Below are positions 21,481 through 32,127 of a DNA stretch of 32,127 bases, piece after piece. The position numbers were made by a program, and so were the translations under genes. Source of the DNA: a bacterium (lineage in GTDB: Bacteria > Patescibacteriota > Minisyncoccia > Phycocordibacterales > Phycocordibacteraceae); the NCBI GenBank assembly GCA_021784875.1, contig JAJYHF010000032.1:1-32127 (forward strand). Reading direction: 5' to 3'. The stretch's first letter is position 1. The number at the start of each line of letters is the position of its first letter. Below the pieces are notes generated by a model. That model was not told where the DNA came from and did no database searches. It saw only the letters and a program-made list of their open reading frames with translations.

Positions 21481-22487
21481 GCGGTTATGATACCACCCCC
21501 CTGCAATCCGCCGCCATCATCATAGAAGACGAGCGACTGACCGGGCGCAGGCATCTCAGGAAGCGTAGCGTCGCTCACGAACCGGGCGCCGTCGACGCGC
21601 CCCCGCACGCGCGCGCCTCGATAACGGTACTGCGCCTCGACCGCACGTGTAGGATCGCCGAGCCAGTTCGCGCTCGCGAAGGCGATTTCCGGGCGTGCGC
21701 GTGCGGGGGCGCGAGCCCGCTCCTTCCCCACTGTGAGCGTGTTCGCCTTGAGATCCTTGGCGAGGACATACCATGGCCCTGGGGTCGCACCGGCGAGCGC
21801 GACGCGCTCGCCGATCGTGTGGAGAAGCACGCCATCGTGCACCCCCACCTCGCGACCCTCTTCGTCGAGCGCCCGCCCCGGTGCCTCGCCGAACTCGCTC
21901 TTCAAGAACTCTTCGACCGAGACGTCGCCGAGGAAGCAGATCCCCTGACTGTCGTGCTTCTCCGCGACCGGCAGCTTGAACCGCTTCGCGAGCTTACGCA
22001 CTTTCTCCTTCTCCATTCCTCCTACCGGGAAGATTGTCGCATCGAGCGCCTCCTTCGGCACCGCCCAGAGGAAATAGCTCTGGTCCTTCGCTCCGCTGCG
22101 GTAGTGTCCGGTCGCGAGCGCATCCGCACCCTGCTCCATCGCATAACGGTAGAACGCGCCGAACTTCACCTCTCGGTTGCACATCACGTCAGGGTTCGGC
22201 GTCCGCCCAGCGGCGTATTCGGCGAGAAGATAATCGATGACGCCCTTCTTGTATTCAACGCTCGCGTCGAAGGTGCGGAACGGAATCTTGAGTCGCGCCG
22301 CAACCCGCATCGCATCGCGTCGATCCGCCGCCCAGGTGCAGGGCATCCCGGGCGGGTACCAGCCCTTGATGAATACGCCCGTCACTCGCGCCCCTGCCCG
22401 CTTAAGGAGTGCGGCCGACACGGCGGAATCCACCCCGCCTGAGAGCCCGACGAAGATGTTTTTCCCTTTTGCGTCCTTAACTTCCAT
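21477..22487 (-). CDS. mnmA: tRNA 2-thiouridylase MnmA
   Basis: SGGVDS, RTPNPDVMCN, ATGHY, KDQSYFL, DSQGICF and PGQSLVFY. Confidence 0.96.
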   Translation of the reverse strand: MEVKDAKGKNIFVGLSGGVDSAVSAALLKRAGARVTGVFIKGWYPPGMPCTWAADRRDAMRVAARLKIPFRTFDASVEYKKGVIDYLLAEYAAGRTPNPDVMCNREVKFGAFYRYAMEQGADALATGHYRSGAKDQSYFLWAVPKEALDATIFPVGGMEKEKVRKLAKRFKLPVAEKHDSQGICFLGDVSVEEFLKSEFGEAPGRALDEEGREVGVHDGVLLHTIGERVALAGATPGPWYVLAKDLKANTLTVGKERARAPARARPEIAFASANWLGDPTRAVEAQYRYRGARVRGRVDGARFVSDATLPEMPAPGQSLVFYDDGGGLQGGGIITA

Positions 22488-24835: not shown

Positions 24836-26089
24836 TTATTTCTTCAGACTTCTAGAACGTGCTTTCCGATGCTGCGACAAAGAGAACCGGTGCGACTCGC
24901 TGTTCGCGAGGACGATGTCGGCCTCGGAAGCACGAGCGGCACGCGCGCCGGTAATCTCGCGCGGGCGGTGTCGTTCATCCTTCACCACCGCCACGACCGG
25001 GATCGCGAGACTCGCCTCGGCGAGCACCGCCTCGGTCGCCTTCTTCTGCGCCTTTCCGCCGTCGACGACGATAACGTTCGGCAACGGCCACTCGGGATGA
25101 CCGAGCCGGCGCACGAGCACCTCGCGCAGCGAGGCGATGTCGTCATTCTTCTGAACCCCTTTGATGCGGAAGGTGCGGTACGCCTTCTTCTCCGGGACGC
25201 CATCGACGACAGCGACCATCACGCCGATCGCGTCTCTCCCTGCGAGGTGAGCAGTGTCGTAAGCTTCGATCCGCGCGCCGGCGAAGCCGGCGCGTTCCTC
25301 CTCGCGTTCCTTCTTAATAAGCGAGACGTCCTGGACATGGTCGAGCGCGAAAAGCTCGCGTCGTAGCTCTGCGGCTTCCTCGAACCGCTCCTCCGCTGCC
25401 GCCTGCTTCATGTCGCGTTCGAGCGCCTTTCGCAGTTCCGTGACACGCCCGCTGAGAAGGAGCGCGACCCGCCGGATGGTCTGCCGATATGCTTTCTGAT
25501 CGAGCGCCCCCTTCTTCGCCAAGGCTTCGAAGGGCAGGTGCGGATACTGTCCGATCTGGCGGTTGAACTCGATTCTCGCGTGCAGGTGTCCACTCTTCGT
25601 TGTGACGGGCTTCGGCGTGTCGTAGAACGGGAAGATCTTCCGGATGAGCCGCAAGGCCTCCTTCAGCTGCGTGCCGTTCGGGAACGGGCCGAACGTGTGC
25701 GAGAGGGGCACGTCCGACTTTCCTAGATCTTTTCCGCGCACTATGAGCACGCGCGGCCACTCCTCTCTCGTGATGACGACGTAGAGGAATGTCTTGTCGT
25801 CCTTCCCTTCCACATTCGCCTTCGGCTGATACTTCTTGATGAGTGCCGCCTCCCGTACGAGCGCCTCTAGGACCGTCGACGCGGTCTCGTGGCTCACGCG
25901 ATCCGCGCGCGTCACCATGTCCACGATGCGCGGCCCTCTGGTCGCTATGAGATCATCATCAAAATAGCTTCGCACCCTGTCGCGCAAGCTCGTCGCCTTC
26001 CCGACGTAGAGCACCTGTCTCCCCTTCTTAAACAGATACACCCCTGGCAGATCCGGCAGGTCGAACTTATTTAGATCGCTTCTTTGCAT
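24836..26089 (-). CDS. uvrC: Excinuclease ABC subunit C, short form
   Basis: GIY-YIG (PGVYLF...YVGKATSLRDRVRSYF), UVR (ERFEEAAELR) and RNase H-like (IEAYDTAH, VVDGG) domains. No C-terminal HhH. Confidence 0.92.
   Translation of the reverse strand: MQRSDLNKFDLPDLPGVYLFKKGRQVLYVGKATSLRDRVRSYFDDDLIATRGPRIVDMVTRADRVSHETASTVLEALVREAALIKKYQPKANVEGKDDKTFLYVVITREEWPRVLIVRGKDLGKSDVPLSHTFGPFPNGTQLKEALRLIRKIFPFYDTPKPVTTKSGHLHARIEFNRQIGQYPHLPFEALAKKGALDQKAYRQTIRRVALLLSGRVTELRKALERDMKQAAAEERFEEAAELRRELFALDHVQDVSLIKKEREEERAGFAGARIEAYDTAHLAGRDAIGVMVAVVDGVPEKKAYRTFRIKGVQKNDDIASLREVLVRRLGHPEWPLPNVIVVDGGKAQKKATEAVLAEASLAIPVVAVVKDERHRPREITGARAARASEADIVLANSESHRFSLSQHRKARSRSLKK
25507..25535. repeat. Short palindromic element in uvrC encoding PFEALAKKG
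   Basis: CCCTTC-TTC-GCCAAGGC-TTC-GAAGGG nested hairpin. Confidence 0.5.
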
Positions 26090-28772
26090 GGCGTTTCAGC
26101 ACGCGGGCGAGATAGTCGCCAGTGTAGGTGCCGGAGGCGGTGACCTCTTCGGGCGTGCCCTTCGCGACGACTTTGCCGCCGCCGGCGCCGCCCTCAGGAC
26201 CGAAGTCGATGATATAGTCGGCCGATTTGATGACGTCGAGGTTGTGCTCGATCACGACGACCGTGTTGCCGCGCGCGACGAGCTCCTGAAGGATCTCGAT
26301 GAGCTTCTTCACGTCGTCGTAGTGGAGGCCGACGGTGGGCTCGTCGAGGAGGTAGATGGTCTTCATCGTCGTCGGGCGATAGAGCTCGGCCGCGATCTTG
26401 ACCCGCTGCGCTTCCCCGCCCGAGAGGGTCGTCGCGCTCTGGCCGAGGGTGAGGTACTCGAGCCCGGTCGCGTTCAATTGTGCGAGGCGTTCTTGGATCG
26501 CCGGGATGTCGGCGAAGAACTGCTCCGCCTCCTCGACCGTCATCTGCAGGACCTCGTAGATATTCTTGCCGCGGTAAGTGACTTCCAAAGTTTCTTTCAT
26601 GAATCGTTTCCCTTCGCAGACATCGCAGGTGACGTAGACCGTCGGAAGGAAGTGCATCTCGACGGCGACGACGCCGTTCCCCTGACAAGCCTCGCAGCGC
26701 CCGCCGGGGACGTTGAAGGAGAAGCGACCCGGCTTCCAGCCTCGGGCGCGAGCCTCGCTCGTCGCGGCGAAGAGGTCGCGGATGTGGGTCATCGCGCCGG
26801 TGTAGGTGGCCGGGTTGCTGCGCGGCGTGCGGCCGATCGGCGACTGATCGATGAGGACGACGCGGCCGGCATATTCGCTGCCGGTGAGCGACGCGACATG
26901 CTCGAGTTGAGCGTCTTTCTTCCGCCACGACTTTAGCCGGTCGTTGGTCCGTTTGACGAGATTCCGGTGCAGGATGTCGTAAAGGAAGGTCGACTTCCCC
27001 GAGCCGGAGACGCCGGTGATGGCGACGAGCTTCCCGAGCGGGATGTCGATATTCTGGTTCACGAGATTGTGTAGCGTCGCACCGCGCACCTTGAGCCACC
27101 CGCGTTCGGCGGTACGACGCGTTTCCGGAACGGAAATCTCCTTCTCCTGTCGAAGGTAGCTGAGTGTCGAAGAACCGCTCTCGTTCTTCTTCGCGGTAAG
27201 GAGGTCGCCAAGCCAGCCCGAGACGACGACATGACCGCCGTGCACGCCCGCGCCAGGCCCCACGTCGACGATGTAGTCGGCAGAGTAGATGGTGTCCTCG
27301 TCATGCTCGACGACGATGATGGTGTTGCCGAGTTCCTTCAGGGTGAGGAGCGTCTTAATGAGGCGGTCGTTGTCGCGCTGATGAAGGCCGATGGTCGGCT
27401 CGTCGAGGACATACAAGGCGCCCGTGAGCCCGCTCCCGAGCTGCGAGGCGAGGCGGATGCGCTGCGCTTCCCCGCCCGAGAGCGTAGCGGCCGAACGATC
27501 GAGCGTGAGGTAGTCGAGGCCGACATCGAGCATGAACGAGAGCCGGCTCCCGATCTCTTTCAGGATCGGTGCGGCGACTTCGCGTTTCATCTCGGAGAGC
27601 TCGAGCGAGTCGACGAAGTCCTTCGCCTCGCGGATGGACATGCTGGTGAAGTCGACGATGTTCTTGCCGAGCGGTGATTCGGAGAAGTCAGACTTCTTTG
27701 AATTCTTGAAGTCCGACTTCTCCGAATCGCCTTTCAAGTACACCCGCAGCGCCTCCGGCCGCAGGCGTTTCCCTTCGCAGACCGGGCAGGGCTCCTCTGA
27801 GAAGAGCGACTTGGTCCCGAGCCCGTTACAGGCCGGGCAGGCGCCATAGGGCGAATTGAAGGAGAAGAGCCGCGGCTCCACCTCGGGGAATGACGATCCG
27901 TCATCCGGACAGATGAATTTCGACGAGAGTGTCTCGAGCGTGCCATCCGCATGCTTTATCTTCACTAATCCGTCGGCCTCCTTGAGCGCGAGCTCGAGCG
28001 CCTCGGAGAGCCGCTCGCGCGCGTTCTGGGTCGAGCGCGCGAACTCGCTCACATAAATCGAGTCGACGACCGCGTCGATGTCGTGCCGCTTGTTGCGGTC
28101 GAGGATCACCTTCTCGCGCAAGGACTGTTGCTTGCCGTCGATGACGACCTTCTCGAAGCCTTTGCCGAGGAGGTCATAGAGGAGCTGGTAATACTCCCCC
28201 TTCCTGCCGACAACGACCGGCGCATAGACAGTCACCGCGCTCTTGTCGACCGCAACGCCCATCACCTGCGTTCCCGATTCTTTCCGTTTCGCCTCGACGC
28301 GGGCGAACACCATCTTGATCATCTCCTCCTTCGAGAGACGCGTGATGGGGACGTCGTGATTGACGCAATAAGGCTGACCGACGCGCGCATAGAGCACACG
28401 CAAATAGTCGTAGATCTCGGTCACCGTCGCGACGGTCGAGCGCGGATTGTTCGAGCGGCTCTTCTGGTCGATAGAGATGGCGGGCGAGAGGCCGGTGATC
28501 TCGTCGACGTCCGGCTTCGGCATCTGATTGAGGAACTGCCGCGCATAGGCCGAGAGCGACTCGACGTAGCGCCGCTGCCCTTCGGCGAAGATGGTGTCGA
28601 ACGCGAGCGAGGACTTCCCGCTCCCCGAGAGGCCGGTGATCACCGTCATGGCCCCGCGCGGCATCTCGACGTCGATATTCTTCAAATTATGCGTGCGCGC
28701 ACCTCTCACTGAGAGCCAATCGCTCCCGTGATGGTGCCCGTGTTCCTCTTTTTTGCTCGGTTTCTTTTGCAT
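26067..28772 (-). CDS. uvrA: Excinuclease ABC subunit A
   Basis: Two Walker A motifs (GLSGSGKS, GVSGSGKS), two LSGGEAQR motifs and Zn-finger CxxC motifs. Confidence 0.98.
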   Translation of the reverse strand: MQKKPSKKEEHGHHHGSDWLSVRGARTHNLKNIDVEMPRGAMTVITGLSGSGKSSLAFDTIFAEGQRRYVESLSAYARQFLNQMPKPDVDEITGLSPAISIDQKSRSNNPRSTVATVTEIYDYLRVLYARVGQPYCVNHDVPITRLSKEEMIKMVFARVEAKRKESGTQVMGVAVDKSAVTVYAPVVVGRKGEYYQLLYDLLGKGFEKVVIDGKQQSLREKVILDRNKRHDIDAVVDSIYVSEFARSTQNARERLSEALELALKEADGLVKIKHADGTLETLSSKFICPDDGSSFPEVEPRLFSFNSPYGACPACNGLGTKSLFSEEPCPVCEGKRLRPEALRVYLKGDSEKSDFKNSKKSDFSESPLGKNIVDFTSMSIREAKDFVDSLELSEMKREVAAPILKEIGSRLSFMLDVGLDYLTLDRSAATLSGGEAQRIRLASQLGSGLTGALYVLDEPTIGLHQRDNDRLIKTLLTLKELGNTIIVVEHDEDTIYSADYIVDVGPGAGVHGGHVVVSGWLGDLLTAKKNESGSSTLSYLRQEKEISVPETRRTAERGWLKVRGATLHNLVNQNIDIPLGKLVAITGVSGSGKSTFLYDILHRNLVKRTNDRLKSWRKKDAQLEHVASLTGSEYAGRVVLIDQSPIGRTPRSNPATYTGAMTHIRDLFAATSEARARGWKPGRFSFNVPGGRCEACQGNGVVAVEMHFLPTVYVTCDVCEGKRFMKETLEVTYRGKNIYEVLQMTVEEAEQFFADIPAIQERLAQLNATGLEYLTLGQSATTLSGGEAQRVKIAAELYRPTTMKTIYLLDEPTVGLHYDDVKKLIEILQELVARGNTVVVIEHNLDVIKSADYIIDFGPEGGAGGGKVVAKGTPEEVTASGTYTGDYLARVLKRHAKKRSK
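27673..27731. repeat. Nested palindromic (REPIN-like) in-frame insertion in uvrA
   Basis: 24-bp arms GGTGATTCGGAGAAGTCAGACTTC and GAAGTCCGACTTCTCCGAATCGCC (2 mismatches) around an 11-nt spacer. Confidence 0.9.
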
Positions 28773-28780
28773 GCTTAAAT

Positions 28781-28815
28781 CCTGCCCGTGGCGGGGCAGG
28801 TACGAAGTGATTATA
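28781..28815 (-). promoter_or_regulatory. uvrA promoter (TGG-TATAAT) with a GC hairpin in the leader
   Basis: TATAAT at 28815-28810 and CCTGCCC/GGGCAGG stem at 28781-28800. Confidence 0.65.
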
Positions 28816-28823
28816 CCATATCC

Positions 28824-30923
28824 CTATTTCCCTGACAGCGGCTTACGGGTGCGGGGTTTCTTTTTCGGACCGGCTCCTTCGAGCTTATAGATCTCGTCGC
28901 GGATGAGAGCGGCGGTCTCGAAGTCGAGCCGCTCGACCGCTTCGGCCATCTCTTCCCTCTTCTGCTCGATAAGCGCCTTCGGGTCTTTCTTATAGGAAAG
29001 CTCGTCGAGCGCGAGAAGCTCTTCCACCGTCTTCTGATGCTCGCTCCGCATCGTTTCGGCGATGTCCTTGATCTCTTTTTGAATGGTCTTCGGCGTGATG
29101 CCGTGCTTCGTGTTGTAGGCGAGCTGGAGCTCGCGGCGGCGGTTCGTTTCTGAAATAGCTTTTTCGAGCGATCCGGTCATGACGTCGGCATACAGGATGA
29201 CGCGGCCTTGGACGTTCCTCGCCGCGCGGCCGATCGTCTGGATGAGCGAGGTCTCGGAGCGGAGGAACCCTTCCTTATCCGCGTCGAGGATGCCGACGAG
29301 CTCGACCTCCGGCAGGTCGAGCCCCTCGCGCAGGAGGTTGACGCCGACGAGGATATCGAACTCCCCTTTGCGAAACTTGGTGAGGATCTCGATACGGTCG
29401 ATCGTCTTCACGTCGGAGTGGAGATACTCGGCTTTGATGCCCTTCTCGCGCAAGAACGCGGAGAGGTCTTCGGCCATCTGCTTGGTGAGCGTGGTCGCGA
29501 GCGCGCGTCCGCCGCCTCTGATGACCTTCTCCGCTTCCTCGATGAAATCCGCGACCTGACCGGGATACGCCACAGGTTTGAGTAAGGTCAGACCTTCCTC
29601 AGCTGCTGAGTAAGGTCTGACCTTACTCATTCCTTCAGAAACGGGACGAATGATGAGCTCCGGGTCGAGGAGACCGGTCGGGCGAATGATCTGTTCGACG
29701 ACTTGATCGGAATGCCCCCGCTCGTAGGGGCCGGGCGTCGCACTGGTATAAATGGTCTGTCCCGTCCTTTCAGTGAACTCTTCGAAGGTGAGCGGTCGAT
29801 TGTCGCGCGCCGAGGGGAGGCGGAAGCCGTATTCGACAAGATTATCCTTACGGGAACGGTCTCCCGCGTACATGCCGCCGAGCTGCGGGACGGTGACGTG
29901 CGACTCGTCTATGACGGTGAGGAAGTCGGGGTCGCATCGCTTGAAATAGTCGAGGAGCGTGTAGGGCGGCTCGCCCGGCGCGCGGCCGTCGAAATGGCGC
30001 GAATAGTTCTCGATGCCGTTGACGTAACCCACCGCACGGATCATCGCGATGTCGTTCAACGTCCGCCGCTTCAAGCGTTCGGCCTCAAGGGGTTTCTCCT
30101 CCCGCTTGAATCTTGCCAGCTGCTCGTCGAGCTCTGCTTTGATGTCGGCCAACGCGCGTTCGCGCTCCTCCTCGCTCGTGACGAAGTGCTTGGCCGGAAA
30201 GATGAAGACATTCTCCGGTTCCCCAAGCTTCGCGCGCGAGATCGGGTCGAGCTTCTCGACGTGTGCGACCTTACTTTCATCAAAAATGACACGGTAGATA
30301 ACCCGTTCGTTCACGGGCATAAGCTCGAGCGCGTTGCCGACCGCCCGGAGCTGCCCTGGCTCAAGGTCGGCGGTCGTCCGCTCGAAGTAGATGCCGACGA
30401 GCGTGCGGATGAGGCTCGCGCGATCGCCTTCAGAGCCCTTCTGTATCTTCACATTCACCTTCTCGTATTCTTCCGGCGAGCCGAGACCATAGATCGCGGA
30501 AACGGACGCGACGATGATGACATCCCTTCGCGTGAGCAGGGCTTGCGTTGCCGCGTGGCGGAGACGGTCGATCTCAGCATTGATCATCGCCTCCTTCTCG
30601 ATGTAGGTGTCGGAGTGCGCGATGTAAGCTTCCGGCTGGTAGTAATCGTAGTAAGAAACAAAATAGTGCACCGCGTTCTTGGGGAAGAATTCGCGATACT
30701 CCTGCGCGAGCTGGGCGGCGAGCGTCTTGTTGTGCGCGAGGACGAGCGTCGGCTTGTCGGCCTTCGCGATCACGTTCGCCATCGTGAAGGTCTTACCCGT
30801 CCCCGTCGCGCCGAAGAGCGTCTGGCGGCGCACGCCCTGCCCCAACCCTTCTTCAAGGGCCTTGATCGCCTGCGGCTGATCGCCGGCGGGCTGGTATGGG
30901 AGATGGAGCTTGAAGTCAGCCAT
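28824..30923 (-). CDS. uvrB: Excinuclease ABC subunit B
   Basis: GATGTGKT, YYDYYQPEAY, IDESH, NLLREGLD, QTIGRAARN and a C-terminal UVR domain. Confidence 0.98.
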   Translation of the reverse strand: MADFKLHLPYQPAGDQPQAIKALEEGLGQGVRRQTLFGATGTGKTFTMANVIAKADKPTLVLAHNKTLAAQLAQEYREFFPKNAVHYFVSYYDYYQPEAYIAHSDTYIEKEAMINAEIDRLRHAATQALLTRRDVIIVASVSAIYGLGSPEEYEKVNVKIQKGSEGDRASLIRTLVGIYFERTTADLEPGQLRAVGNALELMPVNERVIYRVIFDESKVAHVEKLDPISRAKLGEPENVFIFPAKHFVTSEEERERALADIKAELDEQLARFKREEKPLEAERLKRRTLNDIAMIRAVGYVNGIENYSRHFDGRAPGEPPYTLLDYFKRCDPDFLTVIDESHVTVPQLGGMYAGDRSRKDNLVEYGFRLPSARDNRPLTFEEFTERTGQTIYTSATPGPYERGHSDQVVEQIIRPTGLLDPELIIRPVSEGMSKVRPYSAAEEGLTLLKPVAYPGQVADFIEEAEKVIRGGGRALATTLTKQMAEDLSAFLREKGIKAEYLHSDVKTIDRIEILTKFRKGEFDILVGVNLLREGLDLPEVELVGILDADKEGFLRSETSLIQTIGRAARNVQGRVILYADVMTGSLEKAISETNRRRELQLAYNTKHGITPKTIQKEIKDIAETMRSEHQKTVEELLALDELSYKKDPKALIEQKREEMAEAVERLDFETAALIRDEIYKLEGAGPKKKPRTRKPLSGK
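29579..29629. repeat. Nested palindromic (REPIN-like) in-frame insertion in uvrB
   Basis: 51-bp near-perfect palindrome centred on 29604 (24 of 25 pairs), with two AAGGTCWGACCTT cores. Confidence 0.9.
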
Positions 30924-32127
30924 AGTAATTTCTTATAAAATCCGCGCGGTAGGCGTCGAAACGGTTGCCGAGGATGGACTGGCGCGCGCCGGCGACCAGG
31001 TCGAGGATGAAGCCGAGGTTATGCATCGAGGCGATGATTGGGCCGAGCATCTCGCCCGAGCGCAGGAGGTGCGAGACATATGCCAATGAGAACTCGGCAG
31101 AAGTCAGACTTCTAGAATCCGTATTGAAGTCTGACTTCAAGCCGAGTTCGGAGAGTACGGTGAAGTCGTTGCGATATTTTTCGTTCGTGAGATGGACGAT
31201 GCCGCGCTTCGTATAGATAGAGCCGTGGCGGCCGAGGCGCGTCGGCGCGACGCAGTCGAAGAGGTCCATCCCGTTCGCGATGCCTTCGAGAAGGTCGCCC
31301 GGTTCGCCGATGCCGAGGAAGTGCCGCGGCAGCTCATCGGGCAACTCCCCCACCGCCGCCTGGAGCGCACCGCGCATGTCCTCCTTCGAGAAGGAACCGC
31401 CGATGCCGATGCCATCGAACCCCATCTCAGCGATCGCACGCGCCGATTCGCGCCGCAGATCCTCATGCCGACCGCCCTGCACGATACCGAAGATCGCCTG
31501 CTTGTCGCGCGCGTCGAGATTCTGCCGATGCGCCTTCAAGCTGCGCTCGGCCCAGCGGTGCGTGCGCTCCATCGCCTCGCGCTGATACTCATAGGGCTCG
31601 GTCGGCGCAGTGCATTCGTCGAAGGCGAAGAAGATGTCCGCGCCGAGCGCATGCTGGATCTCGACCGATCGCTCGGGCGTGAAGCGGTGAAGCGAGCCGT
31701 CGAGATGCGACGTGAAGGTGACGCCTTCATCATCGATCACCGCGAGCTGGCCGTGCTGGCTCGCGACGCTCTCGTCGTAGACGGCGACTTGGTCCTGTTT
31801 TTCCGTCACTTCTCCTTTGGTGAATTTCGAAATAGTCTTGCCGAACGCCGCACCAAGCGAGAACACCTGGAACCCACCCGAATCGGTGATGGTCGGTCCC
31901 TCCCAGCCCATGAACGGCGCGAGGCCGCCCGCCTGCTTCACGGTTTGCTCGCCGGGTTGGAGGTAGAGATGGTAGGTGTTCGCGAGGACGACCTCAACAC
32001 CGAGGCTCTTCAGGTCGCGCGGCAGGACGCCCTTCACGCCGGCTTTGGTACCGACCGGGGAGAACGCGGGCGTGCGGATGGCGCCGTGCGGCGTCTCGAT
32101 GACGCCGGCGCGCGCTCGGCCTTTGGC
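30916..32127 (-). CDS. tgt: tRNA-guanine transglycosylase (5' end outside the window)
   Basis: TPHGAIRTPAF..VGT, LANTYHL, TDSGGFQVFS, FDEC, GIVQGG, DLFDCVAPTR and HNL. Confidence 0.96.
   Translation of the reverse strand, partial: AKGRARAGVIETPHGAIRTPAFSPVGTKAGVKGVLPRDLKSLGVEVVLANTYHLYLQPGEQTVKQAGGLAPFMGWEGPTITDSGGFQVFSLGAAFGKTISKFTKGEVTEKQDQVAVYDESVASQHGQLAVIDDEGVTFTSHLDGSLHRFTPERSVEIQHALGADIFFAFDECTAPTEPYEYQREAMERTHRWAERSLKAHRQNLDARDKQAIFGIVQGGRHEDLRRESARAIAEMGFDGIGIGGSFSKEDMRGALQAAVGELPDELPRHFLGIGEPGDLLEGIANGMDLFDCVAPTRLGRHGSIYTKRGIVHLTNEKYRNDFTVLSELGLKSDFNTDSRSLTSAEFSLAYVSHLLRSGEMLGPIIASMHNLGFILDLVAGARQSILGNRFDAYRADFIRNYYG
31090..31149. repeat. Nested palindromic (REPIN-like) in-frame insertion in tgt
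   Basis: GAACTCGGC-A-GAAGTCAGACTTC-N13-GAAGTCTGACTTC-AA-GCCGAGTTC. Confidence 0.9.

Follow-up and report, generated by a model that had tools for sequence, protein, structure and literature searches.

Three adjacent genes, uvrA, uvrB and tgt, each carry a long palindrome within their coding sequence in a 32,127-nucleotide (nt) stretch of DNA from a Patescibacterium, and the question raised by this locus is what kind of element can settle inside such genes and leave all of them open. The window, by which we mean this whole stretch, is contig C14 of the genome studied here (G000), an assembly of 517 kb in 46 contigs that has a G+C content of 60% and is 90% complete; almost no intergenic DNA is found in this 0.5-Mb genome. 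The explanation that we regard as highly probable is that the three palindromes are non-autonomous inverted doublets of the REPIN design, tied to Y1 (HUH) transposases that resemble REP-associated tyrosine transposases (RAYTs), mobile between sites and tolerated in loops of the host proteins. It is built on features that are directly observed, namely the anatomy of the palindromes, their repetition in the genome, the empty sites of relatives, the association with RAYT-like genes and the behavior of the reading frames.

Anatomy of the three palindromes

Element 1, a REP-like doublet in uvrA, spans positions 27673-27731 and is read as DSEKSDFKNSKKSDFSES; an inverted-repeat search delimits its arms at 27673-27696 and 27708-27731 (24 nt, 92%), and exact core matches place its two cores at 27684-27696 (GAAGTCAGACTTC) and 27708-27720 (GAAGTCCGACTTC). 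Element 2, a REP doublet in uvrB read as MSKVRPYSAAEEGLTLLK, spans 29574-29634 and is composed of two 23-nt units (29579-29601 and 29607-29629) with a 5-nt spacer, its arms in the same search being 29574-29603 and 29605-29634 (30 nt, 90%). Element 3, a REP-like doublet in tgt read as ELGLKSDFNTDSRSLTSAEF, spans 31090-31149, with cores at 31100-31112 and 31126-31138. The first element is defined by its inverted repeat and DNA fold, the second by its inverted repeat, unit matches and fold, and the third by the palindrome in its sequence, its cores and its fold. The original prediction, made from the letters of the window alone, had placed three inverted repeats of a single design at these positions, which holds, the uvrB palindrome extending to 29574-29634. 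It had also described paired 13-base-pair (bp) cores separated by 11-15 nt; the cores are exact, and the gaps between them are 11, 15 and 13 nt in the uvrA, uvrB and tgt elements.

The core GAAGTCNGACTTC occurs exactly at 27684, 27708, 31100 and 31126, four times against 0.26 expected, a count reached in none of 100 shuffles, and the core AAGGTCNGACCTT occurs exactly at 29584 and 29612, twice against 0.05 expected. Folded as single-stranded DNA, the elements give z = -6.5 (uvrA), -9.3 (uvrB) and -8.0 (tgt), and none of 200 shuffles matches any of them. The elements match no Rfam family, the only hits being sub-threshold hairpins of the miRNA type.

Beyond the cores, the three copies are built differently. 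In the uvrA and tgt elements, and in a doublet of a gene for an HhH-GPD protein elsewhere in the genome, copy-specific outer arms prolong the palindrome past the common cores. Arms of this kind had been proposed for all three elements of the window, and for uvrB the proposal fails, the outer arms there being part of a 23-25-bp unit present 11 times in the genome. The core substitutions had likewise been taken as compensating changes that keep the pairing within one element; the differences lie between families, and two REP families explain the cores with GAAGTC and AAGGTC better than compensatory change in one element does. In element 3, the right arm complements the left arm (GAACTCGGC/GCCGAGTTC) and includes one extra codon, while G006, a relative of the same genus, and most other relatives read G-F-T at this point. 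From this single comparison, copy-specific outer arms are best explained as a later, hairpin-templated extension of the palindrome into its flanks.

A repeat family and its RAYT-like gene

The unit of the uvrB element, TGAGTAAGGTCWGACCTTACTCA, is a 23-nt palindrome with 11 copies at seven loci on five contigs, forming doublets in uvrB, dnaE (contig C1) and tsaD (C7), standing singly on C15 and occurring four times on C24. Within a doublet, one unit has A as its central base and the other has T, so that the units are inverted. With the looser core ARGTCNGACYT, 23 units and eight close pairs are detected genome-wide, against a mean of 2.06 units (maximum 7) and no pair in 200 triplet-block shuffles, which bears out the suggestion that the cores would be enriched over a shuffled null. 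The eight doublets reside in dnaE, tsaD, uvrB, uvrA, tgt, the HhH-GPD gene (C32), miaA (C34) and a VirD4/TraG-like frame. None is extragenic: all eight lie inside long open frames, seven of them within or between Pfam-matched domains, and the doublet of the VirD4-like frame, situated in an unmatched C-terminal tail, is the less certain case. The hosts are nucleic-acid enzymes, an apparent bias that was noticed post hoc. Two single units away from the transposase gene described below are intergenic and overlap the stop codon of the upstream gene. The uvrA doublet and that of the HhH-GPD gene, its sister copy, have the same cores, an identical 11-nt spacer and a common peptide, KSDFKNSKKSDF.

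A genome search with the Pfam model Y1_Tnp located a RAYT-like Y1/HUH gene on contig C24 (G000:C24:364-1077), encoding a protein of 237 amino acids that scores 30.9 bits against PF01797 (Y1_Tnp; cut-off 23) and whose sole NCBIfam match is REP_Tyr_transpos. An alignment of 16 sequences shows no variation at H84 and H86, which form the HxH motif, or at the tyrosines Y140 and Y144, and the motifs NHFHLL and YI..(N/K) are conserved in 30 paralogues. Judged by these matches, the nearest known family of the C24 gene is that of the RAYTs. Four units of the uvrB type surround it (C24:145-171, 262-284, 318-342 and 1073-1099), the nearest lying 22 nt upstream, two others further upstream, and the fourth containing the stop codon of the gene. 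It had been advised, on the basis of the window, to look for a Y1 transposase that has the same cores at its flanks, and this gene is what the search returned; on the identity of its units, the uvrB doublet is assigned to the family of the C24 gene.

The same genome encodes a true IS200-type TnpA of 143 amino acids (G000:C9:6687-7052; NF033573 at 112 bits). Neither this gene nor a partial copy at a contig edge (C34:4-111) is flanked by the palindromes studied here. The weak Y1 match at C34:4-111 was considered as a second RAYT and rejected, being a partial copy of the C9 IS200 TnpA.

Empty and occupied sites in structures and relatives

The host genes are adjacent and all lie on the minus strand. 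According to the list of open reading frames and phmmer searches against solved structures, they are uvrA (26067-28772, 901 amino acids; 2r6f, E = 5.6e-292), uvrB (28824-30923, 699 amino acids; 9gy7_E, E = 6.1e-231) and tgt (30916-32127, its 5' end beyond the window; E ~1e-80), the hosts of elements 1, 2 and 3, respectively. Residues 430-454 of UvrB have no counterpart in solved UvrB, whose aligned chain runs unbroken from 428 to 429. In UvrA, a 21-residue gap relative to 2r6f falls at element 1, the net insertion amounting to 14 amino acids relative to relatives of the genus, and in Tgt, element 3 occupies the position of the CxCxxC zinc loop of Zymomonas Tgt and other Tgt proteins.

The UvrB site was read in 30 loci, comprising the window and 29 relatives. 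A short form of 42 nt (14 amino acids) is present in 15 of them, including the sisters G011 and G016, and a clear hairpin insert in nine (L001, L004, L005, L006, L009, L010, L014, L016 and L028), all nine differing in sequence; at least six or seven distinct hairpins occupy this one UvrB loop across a single genus. In the UvrB tree, the genome of the window groups with the empty G011 and G016 (support 91/78 and 97/94), and the filled G013 pairs with the empty G008. Because many forks of the UvrB tree are unresolved, the exact gain and loss events were left uncounted, and the relatives are non-independent samples.

The other two sites behave similarly in carrying various palindromes. At the UvrA site, read in 26 of 30 genus loci, eight loci have a short form of 22 amino acids (empty sites of this length were read in G013, G004 and G006) and 18 a longer one, with strong hairpins of several unrelated sequences in G000, G024, G023, G014 and G049. 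At the Tgt site, read in 17 loci, the element of the window recurs at the identical position in G006, and other palindromes are found in G024, G009, G002 and G023. Decayed, non-palindromic remnants persist at some UvrB and UvrA sites. The empty sites that an alignment of orthologs was expected to reveal are therefore present in sister species for both uvrA and uvrB.

Contigs from four DNA runs of one mine-drainage study, which is possibly the source of the assembly and so a non-independent check, were also inspected. Identical metagenome contigs bridge the uvrA and uvrB elements, and no trustworthy contig of the four runs joins across an empty site, the candidate joints having 88% likeness and probably deriving from other organisms. 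A variant of the uvrB spacer with 3 nt deleted at 29603 appears in one contig in each of two runs. No RNA run proved to contain the stretch.

Two observations concern the host proteins themselves. The UvrA of the window lacks a stretch of about 116 residues, equivalent to 304-419 in the Geobacillus structure 2r6f, where the alignment skips from chain residue 303 to 420. The Tgt proteins across the genus (the window and relatives L003-L022) are without the three zinc-binding cysteines of CxCxxC, a motif that order-level relatives and Zymomonas Tgt retain; the downstream histidine is kept in the genus Tgt too.

Reading frames and removal of stop codons

All three host genes stay open through their elements, with the peptide pairs KSDF/KSDF, KSDF/RSLTS and KVRP/GLTL, so that the peptides read in the original prediction agree with the translations. 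The peptide SKVRPYS..EEGLTLL is found in DnaE, TsaD and UvrB alike, and the spacers vary by 3 nt between genomic copies. In five of the eight doublets (dnaE, tsaD, uvrB, miaA and the VirD4-like frame), exactly one of the six frames is open, and it is the frame of the host. In four of these five, the sole base that breaks the palindrome also removes a stop codon, changing TAA to GAA in the dnaE, tsaD and uvrB doublets and TGA to TGC in miaA.

This behavior of the frames points to read-through. Moreover, since the same substitution, one of seven single-base escapes from TAA, is carried by all three doublets of the C24 family, we infer that the spread of a doublet that had already lost its stop is likelier than three separate repairs.

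Spread of the system in the genus and the phylum

Of 61 genomes of the genus, 37 encode RAYT-like homologues, and a single genome of 0.5-1 Mb can contain as many as 10 divergent copies. At 26 of 30 RAYT-like loci, a word of at least 10 nt is common to both 200-nt flanks, compared with one of 27 displaced controls; the common word is usually a palindrome of 19-33 bp that differs from locus to locus, and the closer two RAYT-like paralogues are, the more alike their palindromes. Doublets in host genes follow the same pairing, the uvrB doublet of G013 having the core that flanks its own paralogue (G013:C9:2110-2694) and that of G024 having the unit that flanks its own (G024:C2:58223-58870). One unit of the tgt element agrees with a RAYT-flanking unit of G006 at 21 of 23 positions, compared with 14 of 23 for the best of 300 random 80-mers, and the tgt doublet is accordingly best placed, by unit likeness, in a family whose RAYT-like gene survives in that relative.

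In G024, a genome that is 100% complete, the proteins with in-frame units or doublets are RecG, LepA, UvrB, Tgt, LigA, a class-V aminotransferase and TsaD; ten frames were tested there, of which three lack a Pfam match. In the wider phylum, the family profile matches 86 of 301 sampled genomes and 77 of 248 genera, and public records label the bearers Paceibacterota, Parcubacteria, Kaiserbacteria and similar.

Within the RAYT-like loci, two further arrangements were seen. At L060, the RAYT-like gene of G006, a REP unit at 1937-1959 lies inside the RAYT-like open reading frame, with the in-frame reading LKSDFN. At L077 (G024:C2:21883-21922), close to the beginning of a 236-amino-acid frame, a unit of the TGGACAC family stands 8 nt from one of the GGACATC family, and this hybrid pair hints that members of different families are able to land side by side.

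Proposed mechanism and alternative explanations

The proposal of a REPIN-like, non-autonomous element linked to RAYT/IS200-like Y1 enzymes, already voiced from the window, is supported by these data. By analogy with IS200/IS605 and RAYT enzymes, the transposase would recognize and bind the units when they fold into hairpins in single-stranded DNA, excise the doublet and re-insert it without target duplication. The insertions that survive would be those in permissive surface loops that add a multiple of three bases and keep the frame open, and transcription and translation of such elements would thus add peptides to the loops. The repeated use of the three loops may reflect purifying selection in a genome that has hardly any non-coding DNA, and the outer arms would be added afterwards, by hairpin-templated extension of the palindrome into flanking sequence.

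Several points weigh against this explanation. Transposition by the C24 protein, translation of the elements, their neutrality and the extension of the arms are steps that we infer. Against the RayT equivalog NF047646, which has a cut-off of 80, the C24 protein reaches 24 bits and eight further paralogues reach between 21.9 and 52.5 bits, and a profile of the 16 sequences returned only E ~1 to ISDra2 TnpA among solved structures, a result not used as support. No GTAG/CTAC or CGTC/GACG tag stands beside the stem in any of the 11 units. The target duplications that had been expected at insertion sites were not seen, and neither was a common target motif, in the flanks of the three C24-family doublets and of the G024 units, a small sample. 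For the uvrA and tgt elements, no cognate transposase was found in this 90%-complete assembly, and agreement between the uvrA element and the G006 unit is limited to 15 of 23 positions, just over the random maximum of 14. Finally, many unrelated palindromes use the same three loops, which the explanation ascribes to selection alone; targeted insertion is the alternative. A broader reading takes up this last point and holds jointly that Patescibacteria host a phylum-wide radiation of RAYT-like genes and 'coding-competent REPINs', in which the stop-removing substitution spreads with the unit, and that landing is directed to the loops of UvrA, UvrB, Tgt and further nucleic-acid enzymes, where the target could be earlier hairpins or DNA exposed by these enzymes. 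We consider this joint reading rather unlikely; if true, directed landing would explain REPs in uvrA and uvrB of phyla as distant as those of Rickettsia, Opitutus and the bacteria described here.

The recurrence of hairpins in the same loops also bears on whether they are selected functional signals instead of passengers, either mRNA structures tuning translation or decay in genes for repair and tRNA modification or DNA sites of a domesticated RAYT-like regulator. The UvrA, UvrB and Tgt loops hold strong hairpins in many species despite differing sequences, the hosts are nucleic-acid enzymes in both surveyed genomes, repair genes are sometimes the only REP-bearing genes of a species according to Di Nocera et al. 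2013 (PMC3733652), and RAYTs are discussed as domesticated, single-copy genes in 10.1101/119735. Sister species without any hairpin nonetheless keep intact genes, the hairpins at a single site come from unrelated families and are constant neither in length nor in position, some sites retain non-palindromic remnants of decay, and Rfam yielded the sub-threshold hits noted above and nothing over threshold, which together make a functional signal improbable; the structured-signal alternative of the original prediction gains nothing from the data. Even less probable is the growth of the palindromes in place by replication error, through intrastrand template switching or snap-back synthesis, with the Y1 link being incidental. 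The copy-specific outer arms of the uvrA, tgt and HhH-GPD elements fit such growth, as does the right arm of the tgt element, complementary to the left and with its extra codon against the G-F-T reading in G006, and for the outer arms alone we accept it as part of the insertion explanation. Local error is unable to put the same sequence into dnaE, tsaD and uvrB, however, and it is opposed by the identical 23-nt units at 11 places, by near-identical doublets with the same rare substitution in three unrelated genes, by the units flanking the Y1 gene at 26 of 30 loci against one of 27 controls, and by palindrome sequences that track the Y1 paralogue.

That the peptides are native functional loops, their DNA palindromy a mere by-product, is barely conceivable and is contradicted by the data. 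In keeping with such a view, the genes are intact, and the loops, which lie at domain boundaries, are hydrophilic; yet UvrA shares KSDFKNSKKSDF with an unrelated HhH-GPD protein, SKVRPYS..EEGLTLL is common to three different enzymes, the peptides are missing from close relatives, and the same words recur in non-coding DNA around the Y1 gene. Two other candidates were rejected. An operator or SOS box does not suit palindromes that lie mid-gene and in frame, differ in sequence at the same site between species and flank a transposase gene; an intron, intein or translational bypass does not suit inserts of 48-60 nt with no Rfam match, preserved frames and stop-removing substitutions.

Further sequence features

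A second set of perfect palindromes in the genome is rich in G+C and includes those at 21791-21813 of the window, at G000:C1:2719-2743, C1:7716-7742 and C27:9716-9740, and others, many with TCC, GGA or GAA loops. The genome contains 57 perfect palindromes, against 1-6 in shuffles, most of them belonging to this set or being terminator-like hairpins. In DNA of 60% G+C, open frames are a poor guide to the coding status of the G+C-rich palindromes.

In G014 (contig C21) and G020 (contig C8), UvrB is found in open frames of 1100-1245 amino acids, in which query residues 1-50 are split from the rest by an open frame of about 1.5 kb; this insertion looks like an intein near the ATP-binding motif.

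Comparison with known systems

IS200/IS605 elements and their miniature derivatives rely on transposases of the same superfamily (PF01797), recognize hairpins in single-stranded DNA and insert without target duplication. The RAYT-like proteins studied here differ in falling short of the IS200 model, and the true IS200 TnpA of this genome is a separate gene on C9.

RPE-1, one of the Rickettsia palindromic elements, is roughly 100-150 bp long, about twice the length of the 48-60-bp elements of this genome. The comparison with Rickettsia palindromic elements drawn in the original prediction stands only as an analogy. According to Di Nocera et al. (PMC3733652), these are likewise palindromes that have entered housekeeping genes of a reduced genome in frame and are apparently tolerated as peptide segments, with uvrB and dnaE of R. 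conorii among the hosts. RPE-4 and RPE-6 are described there as CGTC-tagged REPs without a dedicated transposase, whereas a cognate Y1 gene is available here, a comparison made by description only. A closer precedent is offered by the intragenic REP dimers in uvrA, uvrB and dnaE reported in that same text (PMC3733652). It describes REPs inside genes, more than half of them dimers coding for 20-30 amino acids, and gives uvrA, uvrB, dnaE and RNA-binding enzymes as the hosts of many, in Opitutus, Rickettsia, Thioalkalivibrio and further bacteria; it also describes tyrosine-transposase genes that are bordered by REPs or by inverted repeats able to pair with themselves, and a GTAG or CGTC tetranucleotide tag at one REP end. 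Since intragenic REP dimers are reported in it, the principle is already published.

The REP/REPIN-RAYT systems, or 'REPtrons', as presented in Bertels & Rainey 2011 (PMC3116915) and PMC3733652, resemble the present system in several respects: short hairpins are found alone or paired as inverted doublets, the Y1/HUH gene stands between copies of its own unit, unit sequences are specific to each Y1 lineage, the Y1 copies are one or few and diverged instead of identical, and no target duplication is seen. The differences from what these sources describe are that the units here are perfect 23-25-bp palindromes without the GTAG/CGTC tag, that the protein has about 235 amino acids with a long C-terminal extension and falls under the NCBI RayT cut-off, and that all eight doublets are genic, with up to 10 paralogues per 0.5-1 Mb genome in a Patescibacterium host. 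The coding palindromes of Nematomorpha mitochondria (PMC6649704), which are also perfect inverted repeats in frame in genes, provide an analogy only, being organellar, up to 284 bp long and without a linked transposase.

Among the matches listed by literature searches, no paper links RAYT to Patescibacteria. As far as these searches reach, the host phylum, the untagged perfect palindromes, the long RAYT-like clade with many paralogues, the all-intragenic doublets, the stop-removing asymmetry and the turnover of hairpins at fixed loops appear to be new, and the list of intragenic REPs in Additional file 3 of PMC3733652 may contain some closer precedents. REPINs are usually described as extragenic and mostly from Proteobacteria, while those reported here stand inside essential genes and bear a signature of adaptation to translation, their sole imperfection removing a stop codon. 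In metagenome-derived genomes, such repeats interrupt assemblies and make 'housekeeping' proteins longer, so that annotation and marker-gene alignments are affected. This lineage offers a compact natural system for the co-evolution of Y1 transposases and hairpins and for the origin of new protein loops from selfish insertions, and it adds independent cases to the unexplained preference of REPs for uvrA and uvrB.

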